NCBI GenBank assembly: GCA_903861945.1
Contig: CAIOWM010000156.1
Location: forward strand, 27,198-91,197
DNA: 64,000 bases
Reading direction: 5' to 3'
Source: an uncultured Archangium sp.
GTDB lineage: Bacteria; Myxococcota; Myxococcia; Myxococcales; Myxococcaceae
Below are positions 35,050-38,000 of this stretch, in pieces (within the stretch, counting starts at the first letter, position 1; each line of letters opens with the position of its first letter). Under the pieces are notes generated by a model. That model was not told the origin of the DNA. It saw only the letters and a list, made by a program, of their open reading frames with translations, and did not search any database. A program made the position numbers and the translations under genes.

Positions 35050-38000
35050 GTGACCGTCGTCGTCGTCGCCGAGAAGCCCTCCGTCGCACGAGACCTGGCC
35101 CGGGTGCTGGGCGCGACCACGCGTGGGGAAGGCTCGCTCTCGGGCAACGGCTACGTGGTCACCTGGGCCATCGGTCACCTGGTCGGCCTCGAAGAACCCG
35201 AGGGCATCGACCCCCGCTGGCGCCGCTGGAGCTTCGACACGCTCCCCATGTTCCCCGGGACGTGGCCCCTGCGCGTCTTCGAGCAGACCCGCGCGCAGTT
35301 CGAGGTGGTGCGCCGGGCCTTGCGCGGGAAGGACGTGAGCGAGGTCATCTGCGCCACCGACGCCGGGCGCGAAGGCGAGCTCATCTTCCGCTTCATCTAC
35401 GAGGCCGCGGAGTGCCGCAGGCCGGTGAAGCGGCTGTGGATCTCCTCGCTGACCGACGGCGCCATTCGCGATGGGTTCGACAGGCTGCGCCCCCAGCGGG
35501 ACTTCGATGGCCTCGCCGCCGCCGCCCTGGGTCGCAGCCGCGCCGACTGGTTGGTGGGCATGAACCTCTCGCGGGCCTACGGGCTGGCGCTCGACTCGCA
35601 GCTCTCGGTGGGCCGCGTGCAGACCCCGACCCTGGCGCTCATCGTCGAGCGCGAGCTCGCCATTCGCGACTTCAAGCCCGAGGACTACCTCGAGGTGGTG
35701 GCCACGTTCTCCCCGCGCGACGGGGCGAGCTACCCGGGCACCTGGCACCGCGAAGGTCCCGGCGAGCACCCGCGGCGCCTGCCCGCGTCGGGTGAGGAGG
35801 CGCAGGCCATCGTCGCGCGCGCGAAGTCGGGGAAGGCGAAGATTGCCTCCGTCACCTCGAAGCAGAAGAAGCTCCCCGCGCCGCTGCTCTACGACCTGAC
35901 CGAGCTGCAGCGACACACCAACCGGCTCTACGGCTACTCGGCCCAGCGCACCCTCGAGCTGGCCCAGGCGCTGTACGAGCAACACAAGCTGATCAGCTAC
36001 CCGCGCACCGACAGCCGGCACCTCTCGGCGGACGTGGCGGCCACGCTGGGGCCCATCGTCAAGGCCATCCGGGGGCCGTTCGAGGCGCAGCTCGCCCCGG
36101 GGACTGGCGAACGGCCGCTGGGGAAACGCTTCGTCGACGACGCGCAGGTCTCGGATCACCACGCCATCATCCCCACCGCCATCGCGGCCGGTGCGCGCTC
36201 GCTGAGCGCCGATGAACGCCGGGTGTACGAGCTCATCTGCCGCCGGTTGCTGCAGGCCTGGCATGACGACTTCACCTGGGCCGCGACCGAGGTGGTGACC
36301 GAGGTGACCACCCCTTCCGTGGTGGACCGGTACCGCAGCCACGGCACGGCCATCGAGCAGGAAGGCTGGAAGGTGCTCGACGTCGGGCCGGTGAAGGCAC
36401 CGTCCGAGAAGAAGCGCGCGCCGGGGGAAGAGGCCGACGACGAGGGGATGCTGCCCTCGGGGCTCGAGCGCGGGCAGCCCCAGCAGGTGCTCGAGGCGAA
36501 GGCGGTGCCCAAGCGCACCAGGCCTCCCGCGCGGCTCAACGACGCCACCCTGCTCACCGCCATGGAGACCGCCGGCAAGACCCTCGATGAACGCGAACTG
36601 TCAGAGGCGATGAAGGAGAACGGCCTGGGCACGCCCGCCACCCGCGCCAACATCATCGAGACGTTGCTCACCCGCGCGTACGTGCAGCGGGAGGGCAAGA
36701 CGCTGGTCGCCACCGACAAGGGCATCGGGCTCATTGAAGTCGTCGATGCCGAGGTGAAGAGCGCGGCCATGACCGGGGGGTGGGAAGCGCGGCTCCAGCG
36801 CATCGCCAAGGGCCAGGGCGAGCTGCCCGAGTTCCTCGCGGGAATTGAGCGGTATGTGGAGTCGGTCATCGGGCGCATCCGCACCACGCCGCCCACGCCC
36901 ATGGGTGGGCCTCCGGGGGCGGGCGGGCGCAGCGCGTATGTCGCGAGTGCGTCGGCGAGGACTGCGGCGAACTCCTCGGCTGCGATGAGCACCGCGGCGT
37001 CACGAGGAACCGCTGCGACGTCGGGAAGTACGGCGGCAGTGTTGGGGCCTGGGCGGCCAGTTCGGCCCCTCACCCCGGCCCTCTCCCCGCTCCCGCAGGG
37101 CGAGGGAGGGACGGCAGTGGTTGCGCCAGGGCGTCCGGTTCGGCCCCTCACCCCGGCCCTCTCCCCGCTCGCGCAGGGCGAGGGAGGGACGGCGACGCAG
37201 ATGCTCTCGCGCTTCGGTCACGCCTCCTTCCGCCCCCACCAGCGCGAGGCCTGCGAGGCCGTCATCGCCGGCAAGGACGTGCTGCTCGTCATGCCCACCG
37301 GCGCCGGCAAGTCGCTGTGCTACCAGCTCCCCGGCCTCGCCCGCGGCGGCACCACCCTCGTCATCAGCCCGCTCATCGCGTTGATGGAAGACCAGGTCAC
37401 CCGGCTCCAGGCCCTGGGCCTGCGCGCCGAGCGCATCCACTCGGGCCGCGCGCGCCTCGAGTCCCGCCGGGTGTGCGCCGACTACCTCGCCGGCACCCTC
37501 GACTACCTCTTCATCGCCCCCGAGCGCCTCGGTGTCCCCGGCTTCCCCGAGCTGCTCGCCAAGCGCACGCCCTCGCTGGTGGCCATCGACGAGGCGCACT
37601 GCATCTCGCAGTGGGGCCACGACTTCCGCCCCGACTACCGGCTGCTCGGCGCCCGCCTGCCCTCGCTGCGCCCCGCCCCGGTGATGGCCCTGACCGCCAC
37701 CGCCACCCCGCGCGTGCAGCAGGACATCGTCGCCCAGCTGAGCCTCGGCACCTCCAGCAAGCAGTTCATCCACGGCTTCCGGCGCCACAACCTCGCCATC
37801 GAGGCCCTCGAGGTGCTGCCCAGGGAGCGGGCCGAGCGCACCCTGGAGTGGCTGCTGCGCAAGGGCCGGCTGCCGGCCATCGTCTACGCCGCCACGCGCA
37901 AGACCGCCGAGGCCACCGCCGACCTGCTCTCCAGCCGCATGCGCGCCGCGCCGTACCACGCGGGCCTCTCCACCGAGGAGCGCGACTCGACCCAGACCGC

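Follow-up and report, generated by a model that had tools for sequence, protein, structure and literature searches.

Tandem duplication of a BoxC-family element and its flank in the linker of a TopoIII–RecQ fusion gene of an uncultured Archangium

The BoxC family of repeats has been known since the 1990s. The BoxC repeat was reportedly described by Bachellier et al. and the PIT element by Hoyne and Maher in 2000, and we know of no mobility mechanism, transposase, target-site duplication or function for the family. In this work we describe two copies of the element in a 64-kb stretch of DNA from an uncultured Archangium sp. (contig CAIOWM010000156.1), referred to below as the window, by which we mean all of the 64,000 nucleotides that were analysed. 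The copies form part of a tandem array inside a gene that fuses topoisomerase III (TopoIII) to the helicase RecQ, in the linker between the two. TopoIII and RecQ are the two enzymes of the ‘dissolvasome’, and RecQ helicases unwind G-quadruplex (G4) and triplex DNA.

The closest described system is that of E. coli, where the ‘BoxC’ repeat was rediscovered as the ‘PIT’ element and then renamed TM-ECO (Holder et al. 2015, PMC4666352). Its consensus, 5'-CCCTCNCCC-N3-6-GGGNGAGGG-N3-GGGNGAGGG, consists of three 9-nt blocks separated by two loops, and the strain MG1655 carries 23 copies that are always intergenic (PMC4666352). Inverted pairs that join a type A copy (loop TTA) to a type B copy (loop CCG) are frequent there, with 5 of the 23 copies paired, and the commonest E. 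coli type is ‘mm’ (PMC4666352). TM-ECO elements have neither promoter nor terminator activity, and their sites show local genomic variability (PMC4666352). The E. coli single strand folds in vitro as a triplex or a G-quadruplex, as seen by circular dichroism and nuclear magnetic resonance (PMC4666352, PMC5100583), and Kaplan et al. (2016, PMC5100583) treat the same sequences, HPG1 and HPG2, as a switch between G-quadruplex, hairpin and duplex, with HPG2 given as dGGGAGAGGGCCGGGGTGAGGG. Neither a function nor a way of spreading is assigned to BoxC/PIT/TM-ECO in these two papers.

An earlier note on the window had reported a 78-bp duplication with an internal palindrome in the TopoIII–RecQ linker, and did not recognise its identity with BoxC/PIT/TM-ECO. 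We consider it highly probable that the 78-bp unit is linker DNA plus a member of this family, that is, a BoxC / PIT / TM-ECO element of type B ‘mm’ with the HPG2 core, and that this composite was duplicated in tandem within the linker. A 21-nt core, at 37067-37087 and again at 37145-37165, is the exact reverse complement of the E. coli HPG2 sequence GGGAGAGGGCCGGGGTGAGGG. Both minus-strand copies match the three-block pattern CCCTCNCCC-N-GGGNGAGGG-NNN-GGGNGAGGG, for which 0 matches are expected in shuffled sequences. Copy 1 reads CCCTCGCCC-TGCGGGAGCG-GGGAGAGGG-CCG-GGGTGAGGG on the minus strand, and copy 2 is the same but for one base of the apical tetraloop (GCGA vs GGGA on the minus strand, at unit position 60). 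Loop 2 is CCG in both, which makes them type B, and both are of the ‘mm’ variant, with a G·A mismatch. In the predicted fold (ViennaRNA, hairpins only), six of the ten nucleotides of loop 1 pair and form a 3-bp stem extension around the tetraloop. The purine strand has the same four G-tracts as the E. coli sequences and, like single-stranded members of the family, may adopt a G-quadruplex, an intrastrand triplex or a hairpin. All frames of the pyrimidine strand are free of stop codons, and its peptide is rich in Pro, Leu, Ser, Thr, Gly and Glu. No Rfam model fits the BoxC element: a scan of 36500-37700 at E ≤ 10 returned chance-level matches only, with scores far below the gathering thresholds, to eukaryotic microRNA (E ≥ 0.08), small nucleolar RNA and long non-coding RNA models, a CRISPR repeat and the L31 ribosomal leader.

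The core of the element is widely dispersed. A scan for the exact 22-mer CCCTCACCCCGGCCCTCTCCCC, with one genome per species, identified at least 120 loci, hosted by Verrucomicrobiota, Planctomycetota, Alpha- and Gammaproteobacteria (those listed are Enterobacter, Cedecea, Kluyvera, Rhodanobacter and Dyella), Acidobacteriota, Myxococcota and others. An Enterobacter-type copy matches 5396 of 5426 complete E. coli genomes, at a median of 24 unannotated places in each. Among the matches listed, to which the following counts also refer, 130 oriented copies have unrelated flanks. Their usual architecture is CCCTCACCCC-GG-CCCTCTCCCC, a loop, and then GGGGAGAGGG or GGGGCGAGGG followed by AG; the downstream GGGNGAGGG block with its AG is found in 110 of 136 core matches, and directly beyond the element the family consensus has C upstream and AG downstream. 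The exact 22-mer occurs on three contigs of one Archangium metagenome-assembled genome (MAG) and on two of another, and the loop signature GCTnnCGCA, as found in the window, is shared by four of the five Archangium MAG copies (L016, L018, L078 and L102). Since the source genome was covered by the window alone, these related MAGs are what points to dispersal in that genome.

In 95 copies of the element the best flanking direct repeat has a mean length of 2.18 nt, compared with 2.15 nt in a shuffled-flank control. A classical miniature inverted-repeat transposable element or transposon, with terminal inverted repeats and a target-site duplication, was rejected since there is no duplication above this control. 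Membership of the REP/REPIN–RAYT system was also rejected, there being no GTAG at either end and a core that is identical across phyla, although a RAYT gene was not searched for.

Some members of the family have a more elaborate organization. In a Verrucomicrobiota MAG (L068, 1299-2607) five BoxC copies with conserved flanks are spaced about 255-260 bp apart, with one interval of 515 bp; this is a longer tandem array with one BoxC per unit. A Planctomycetota subfamily (L019, L048, L062, L070, L089 and L097) has an insert of 36-51 nt in loop 1 and a conserved sequence upstream that contains GGGGTGAGGGG, which suggests a larger composite element. BoxC copies were also seen on contigs binned as Bifidobacterium (L007, L074, L107 and L111), three of which (L007, L107 and L111) have flanks like those of the Verrucomicrobia subfamily (…acgctcg/…cgcttA and …gagaatc). 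These contigs may be mis-binned, and the Bifidobacterium matches were left out of the host-phylum count.

Tandem Repeats Finder places the array of the window at 37034-37193, with a period of 78, 2.1 copies (2.05 × 78 bp), 91% matches, no indels and a score of 271. The phase of a repeat is arbitrary, and the array that the earlier note gave as 37057-37212 is the one called here at 37034-37193. The period equals 26 codons, in frame with an open reading frame (ORF) that is 1382 amino acids (aa) long, and units 1 and 2 are translated as AVLGPGRPVRPLTPALSPLPQGEGGT and AVVAPGRPVRPLTPALSPLAQGEGGT. The core 22-mer and a 21-mer arm each have two exact occurrences in the 64-kb window (0.00-0.02 expected from shuffles), and each copy contains the imperfect inverted repeat CCCTCTCCCC...GGGCGAGGG. 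Within a unit, a flank of 33 nt (CGGCAGTGTTGGGGCCTGGGCGGCCAGTTCGGC) is joined to an element of about 43-45 nt. This flank was not found beside any other of the 130 BoxC copies compared, therefore the 33 nt are ordinary linker DNA that was duplicated with the element. As the flank was duplicated along with the element, the array is the product of a local tandem duplication and not of two insertions.

The divergence between the units is informative about age and constraint. They differ at seven positions (9, 11, 13, 17, 23, 26 and 60 of the unit), giving six differing codons, three of them synonymous. Of the seven mismatches, the 33-nt flank contains six and the apical tetraloop one (hypergeometric P = 0.02); the element part of the units is either constrained or homogenised. 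The flank divergence of 6/33 = 0.18 is about half of the four-fold-site divergence, 0.37, between the window gene and its closest available orthologue (locus L121, protein P0001). The duplication is therefore old: it postdates the split from L121/P0001, yet it is far from recent. Thus, where the earlier note spoke of a perfect 78-bp tandem duplication, possibly by recent slippage, a real, local and tandem duplication of 78 bp can be kept, while ‘perfect’ has to give way to 71 of 78 positions and ‘recent’ to a flank that is 18% diverged. Its placement of the array, in frame and inside the linker, agrees with the 26-codon period and with the Pfam domains on both sides. The hairpin-capable inverted repeat that it described is present in each copy, but is not thermodynamically exceptional.

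The host gene provides the context for these results. Pfam assigns Toprim and Topoisom_bac to aa 4-596 of the 1382-aa ORF, and DEAD, Helicase_C, RecQ_Zn_bind and HRDC to aa 728-1378. Pro, Gly, Ala, Ser and Thr abound in the linker, whose base composition is non-coding-like. By codon position (1/2/3), the GC content of the linker is 0.71/0.78/0.80, that of the Topo part 0.70/0.49/0.93 and that of the RecQ part 0.74/0.51/0.96; the third-position (GC3) signature of the flanking domains is absent from the linker, both here and in three homologues. The linker stays open and in frame, and otherwise evolves like spacer DNA. The TopoIII and RecQ domain sets are found on a single protein in all 120 of the best homologues (1242-1601 aa), which are annotated as Myxococcaceae, Archangiaceae, Polyangiaceae and others, all of them Myxococcota. 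Their linkers are hypervariable, with lengths of 35-305 aa, low complexity and frequent tandem repeats of their own. Most of them, including the examined outgroups (some annotated as Polyangiaceae), lack an element-derived peptide. The TopoIII–RecQ fusion appears to predate the BoxC element in its linker, although it is possible that the element-free linkers hold BoxC copies that have decayed past recognition. Among the top-ranked matches of a literature search we found no report of a natural bacterial TopoIII–RecQ fusion, and none of them mentioned Myxococcus.

A large sister clade has linkers of 160-305 aa with BoxC-free tandem peptide repeats (...TANGGTEHFLG... and ...SANG.A...; P0008, P0010, P0012-P0014, P0019, P0021 and P0032). 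The linker is therefore a general hot spot for repeat expansion.

BoxC is also found in orthologous linkers. Peptides derived from the element, recognised by their six-frame signatures, occur in the linkers of ten fusion proteins, the window's own included; the homologues named are P0001, P0005, P0016, P0025-27, P0029 and P0030. In the tree, these element-bearing linkers fall into three subclades, all within the Myxococcaceae/Archangiaceae-like part. At the DNA level BoxC was confirmed in the linkers of seven loci, again counting the window. Calling the purine-sense copy R and the pyrimidine-sense copy Y, we find R + Y in L121 (P0001), L126 (P0027) and L129 (P0025), R + R + remnant + Y in L123 (P0030), and R in L124 (P0016) and L130 (P0029); L125 (P0004) has none at the DNA level. 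Thus L121, L123, L126 and L129 host inverted R…Y pairs, the window has two direct copies instead (Y + Y, in tandem), and L121 has a single Y copy at the place that corresponds to the window's. Polarity is fixed in all seven loci, with R proximal to Topo, about 25-70 nt into the linker, and Y proximal to RecQ, about 14-34 nt 5' of the RecQ domain.

The reading frame, on the other hand, is not fixed. Across lineages Y is read in three frames, as LTPALSP, PHPDPLP and PSPPPSP, and so is R, as GEGRGEG, GRGSGRG and GERVGVR. What is conserved is the DNA and not the peptide, because orthologous elements are read in all three frames. Upstream (5') of Y, the window and L121 have the flank GTCCG(G)TTC(G/T)G in common, in which a 1-nt indel shifts the frame. 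At 26 of 27 block positions these two loci agree, but the remaining linker sequence cannot be aligned. The blocks are intact, against a divergence of 36-47% at four-fold sites in other parts of the gene.

BoxC copies also occur directly after the TopoIII–RecQ stop codon, as an inverted pair in L121 (7002-7040 and around 7069) and at 4152-4183 in L126; in the window no BoxC lies downstream of 39198. At the Topo-proximal end of the window linker, where orthologues have R, the segment 36893-36935 (CCCACGCCCATGGGTGGG…; CCCACGCCCATGGGTGGGCCTCCGGGGGCGGGCGGG) is partly shared with L125. Its likeness to a decayed R copy was judged too weak to call.

From these patterns we infer the following history. 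The TopoIII–RecQ fusion would be old in Myxococcota, and an inverted BoxC pair would have entered its disordered linker in a Myxococcaceae/Archangiaceae-like ancestor, with R near Topo and Y near RecQ. The pair would then have been inherited, subject to lineage-specific loss, compensated frameshifts and duplications. In the window lineage the R copy would have been lost, and Y would then have undergone a tandem duplication together with 33 nt of its upstream flank, with replication slippage or template switching as the most probable mechanism. The unit start at 37034-37037 and the sequence just 3' of the array share a 4-nt microhomology, CGGC, which may have been the slippage site, and a stable secondary structure may have assisted. 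This would have happened after the split from the closest available relative, though not recently. We think that the element is tolerated in the ORF because it is free of stop codons in all frames and because its peptide suits a flexible tether. The effect on the protein would be a tether longer by 26 residues, and nothing else. The DNA/RNA motif itself would be retained either by selection on nucleic-acid structure or by conversion from other genomic copies. A hint of instability stands beside this history, in the local variability of TM-ECO sites (PMC4666352) and in a break inside the repeat in an independent scaffold, L128.

That break brings us to the alternatives. The source is of a metagenome type, and the ENA scaffold L128 has a 100-N gap (4839-4938) exactly inside the repeat, with 55 nt of copy 1 overlapping on both sides; both would fit an array that was collapsed or expanded during assembly. 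Yet the two units differ at seven positions and are thus distinguishable by reads, at least three contigs are on record with the identical 1382-aa protein, and the copy 1-to-copy 2 junction of L128 is intact after the gap. On these grounds the array is not an assembly artefact, an explanation that we find scarcely credible. The break reflects either a coverage drop or a heterogeneous population, and it is the sole hint of copy-number variation. Through the gap the gene was called as a 693-aa RecQ-only fragment (P0122), now a cluster representative, and the 90% protein cluster contains no length variant besides this fragment. In a metagenome scan with a 30-nt degenerate pattern from the RecQ start, only the contig of P0001 matched. 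Could the array be explained by recent, simple slippage of ordinary linker sequence, the palindrome being incidental GC-rich DNA? The head-to-tail units without indels, the CGGC at the borders and a hairpin energy equal to that of shuffles all agree with this. However, the 22-mer core lies in at least 120 unrelated loci, occurs about 24 times per E. coli genome and equals a published element, and the 18% divergence of the flank is not that of a recent event. The dispersed core and the identity with HPG2 refute simple slippage as a complete explanation, and we give it next to no credence. Equally improbable is a module that acts at the protein level, in which the duplicated, Pro-rich RPLTPALSPLxQGEGG would be selected for partner binding or tether length. 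The repeat is in frame, duplicated in whole codons and rich in Pro, as many interaction motifs are, and three of the six differing codons are synonymous, but the orthologous element is read in three frames as unrelated peptides, the linker is without the GC3 signature, and the element is mostly non-coding elsewhere.

Two further alternatives concern how the element came to be in the linker. The earlier note had suggested that an element inserted between separate topB and recQ genes and so created the fusion, in which case the linker would be a former intergenic spacer with an inverted BoxC pair. The unit does contain a small repetitive element, the linker has a non-coding-like composition, R and Y are paired as in E. 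coli intergenic regions, and R-type copies stand just 3' of the stop codon in L121 and L126. That said, the element is unlikely to have created the fusion because all 120 of the best homologues are already fused and most of their linkers, outgroups included, are without the element peptide, with none in the DNA of L125; we rate this account as very unlikely. The note's two alternatives for what a search for other copies might find, a local duplication or a dispersed element, are each partly true, as the core is dispersed (at least 120 loci) and the 33-nt flank is not. It is also conceivable, if rather unlikely, that BoxC inserted repeatedly and independently into a permissive or hot-spot linker, with the window pair still a local duplication. 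The three separate subclades with their element-free sisters and the extra copies in L123 would be expected if so, and the loops differ between lineages, those of the window matching the subfamily dispersed in Archangium. Against repeated insertion stand the consistent polarity in seven of seven loci and the upstream flank of Y that is common to the window and L121, and no target-site duplication or other insertion signature was found. A last proposal concerns maintenance: the inverted pair may be kept by selection as a cis-acting structure coupled to the encoded RecQ/TopoIII. The structure could be a template-strand G-quadruplex, triplex or hairpin, or a C-rich hairpin in the mRNA. It could serve as an autoregulatory sensor, through transcription or replication that depends on RecQ/TopoIII, or as a programmed translational pause between the modules. 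If true this would be the first assigned function for BoxC, but we regard it as a speculative and quite improbable proposal.

Several points weigh against the reading that we prefer, a BoxC element that descends from a single ancestral pair and was duplicated with its flank. Each of the element-bearing subclades has element-free sisters. Our detection by exact block patterns ignores decayed copies, and the apparent conservation is therefore inflated. The 64-kb window has just two BoxC copies, with none outside the linker. The CGGC microhomology agrees with slippage, yet at 72% GC it counts as weak evidence. The folding energy of the palindrome is not exceptional, with z of +0.55 to -1.36 against dinucleotide shuffles, as RNA or as DNA; because it does no better than the shuffles, the significance of the palindrome rests on conservation in the family. 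Loop 1 has 10 nt (TGCGGGAGCG / TGCGCGAGCG), which is outside the published 3-6 nt. This limit is specific to E. coli, because loop 1 has 2-10 nt in 91 of the 110 family copies with a third block within 60 nt. Finally, both window copies are in frame within an ORF, whereas the E. coli elements are ‘always located intergenically’ (PMC4666352).

The last of these points can be addressed with the 130 listed copies, among which we identified in-frame cases in long ORFs with Pfam domains on both sides. For example, in L012 (Planctomycetota) BoxC separates the two halves of the LigA adenylation domain, and in L085 it separates the catalytic core of LeuRS from the editing domain. In L001 (Verrucomicrobia) it stands between the membrane and ATPase domains of an ABC exporter, in L026 (Cedecea) in the DsbD linker, between DsbD_N and DsbD_TM, and in L088 within the N-terminal domain of an ATP-dependent DNA ligase. 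The intergenic-only location is a feature of the E. coli sample, because in-frame copies occur in other phyla. Occurrence in coding DNA, at interdomain linkers or elsewhere where it is tolerated, is a property that recurs in the BoxC family.

Table 1. Coordinates in the window of the fusion gene, its linker, the tandem units and the BoxC copies with their G-quadruplex motifs.
Feature	Position	Strand	Basis
TopoIII–RecQ fusion ORF, 1382 aa	35050..39198	+	ORF list, translation, Pfam
Interdomain linker, 114 codons	36871..37212	+	boundaries from conserved anchors
Tandem unit 1, 78 bp (33 nt linker flank + BoxC copy 1)	37034..37111	+	
Tandem unit 2, 78 bp, matching unit 1 at 71/78 positions	37112..37189	+	
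CGGC, first 4 nt of third unit	37190..37193	+	sequence reading; Tandem Repeats Finder end
BoxC / PIT / TM-ECO copy 1	37066..37108	-	block pattern match 37067-37106(-)
BoxC / PIT / TM-ECO copy 2	37144..37186	-	block pattern match 37145-37184(-)
Four-tract G-quadruplex motif GGGGAGAGGGCCGGGGTGAGGGG, template strand, copy 1	37066..37088	-	
Four-tract G-quadruplex motif, copy 2	37144..37166	-	

Some features of the surroundings complete this inventory (Table 1). At 37183-37203 the purine arm of copy 2 provides a GGAGG located 13 nt 5' of an in-frame ATG at 37201 (the M of TQMLSRFGH), where the RecQ module begins. That 37201 is a conserved internal start for RecQ was rejected, as neither the ATG nor another start codon is kept in L121, L123 and L126. 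The gene directly upstream, at 31985-34990, encodes a pentapeptide-repeat protein of about 990-1000 aa, by Pfam annotation. Other tandem repeats of the window are located at 7155-7710 (periods of 45/90/177 bp, about 12 units that encode sequence rich in Pro, Gln and Tyr), 46536-46689 (27 bp × 4.7, 95%), 55861-56026 (78 bp × 2.1, 81%, without BoxC blocks) and 1224-1388 (63 bp × 2.2). The GC skew is flat over the 64 kb (-0.03 to +0.03) and allows no inference of the replication strand.

The element itself is already known. New are its coding context, its tandem duplication together with flanking DNA and an inverted pair that has apparently been kept over the long term at corresponding positions of a RecQ–TopoIII gene. 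BoxC is thus not confined to intergenic DNA and is found in frame in real proteins, as Rickettsia palindromic elements (RPEs) are. A pair of fixed polarity, with blocks that are intact despite changes of frame, is the mark either of selection acting on the nucleic acid or of conversion that is still going on, and the TopoIII–RecQ gene family is a natural system in which to tell the two apart. The host gene fuses RecQ and topoisomerase III, enzymes that handle such structures, which may be a coincidence. There is also a lesson for annotation: linker peptides such as ‘PLTPALSP…GEG’, ‘GEGRGEG’ and ‘GERxGVRG’ are read-through BoxC DNA and not protein motifs.

How does this locus compare with other known systems? 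Like duplications that arise by slippage at hairpins and microhomologies, the array is head-to-tail, free of indels and bordered by a short repeat, CGGC, with a structure-forming sequence inside. Unlike them, the event in the window is old, and the structured part of the unit is near-identical while the rest has diverged. REP/BIME and REPIN–RAYT sequences are, like BoxC, short GC-rich extragenic palindromes, frequently in inverted pairs and in many copies per genome. However, REPs are species-specific, begin with a 5' GTAG and depend on a RAYT (IS200/IS605-like) transposase, whereas BoxC has the same core in different phyla and no GTAG.

RPEs, reportedly described by Ogata et al., provide the best parallel for the coding location. 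They too are short, palindromic and dispersed repeats that are found in frame in genes, in loops and linkers, with peptides that depend on the frame. Compared by description, RPEs are unrelated in sequence, about 100-150 bp long, AT-rich and confined to Rickettsia, whereas the window element is GC-rich and has about 45 nt. We know of no description of RPEs with a triplex or G4 block architecture.

The closest relative remains BoxC as known from E. coli. The window copies have the same three 9-nt blocks, the CCG loop 2, the ‘mm’ mismatch and the HPG2 core, with unrelated flanks; inverted pairs recur in the orthologous linkers, length is locally variable in both, and neither has a known target-site duplication or transposase. 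The window copies differ in being coding and translated, in their 10-nt loop 1 and in a tandem duplication that includes flanking DNA. Furthermore, the linker site has apparently been retained across deep divergence, whereas the sites in E. coli are reported to be unstable.

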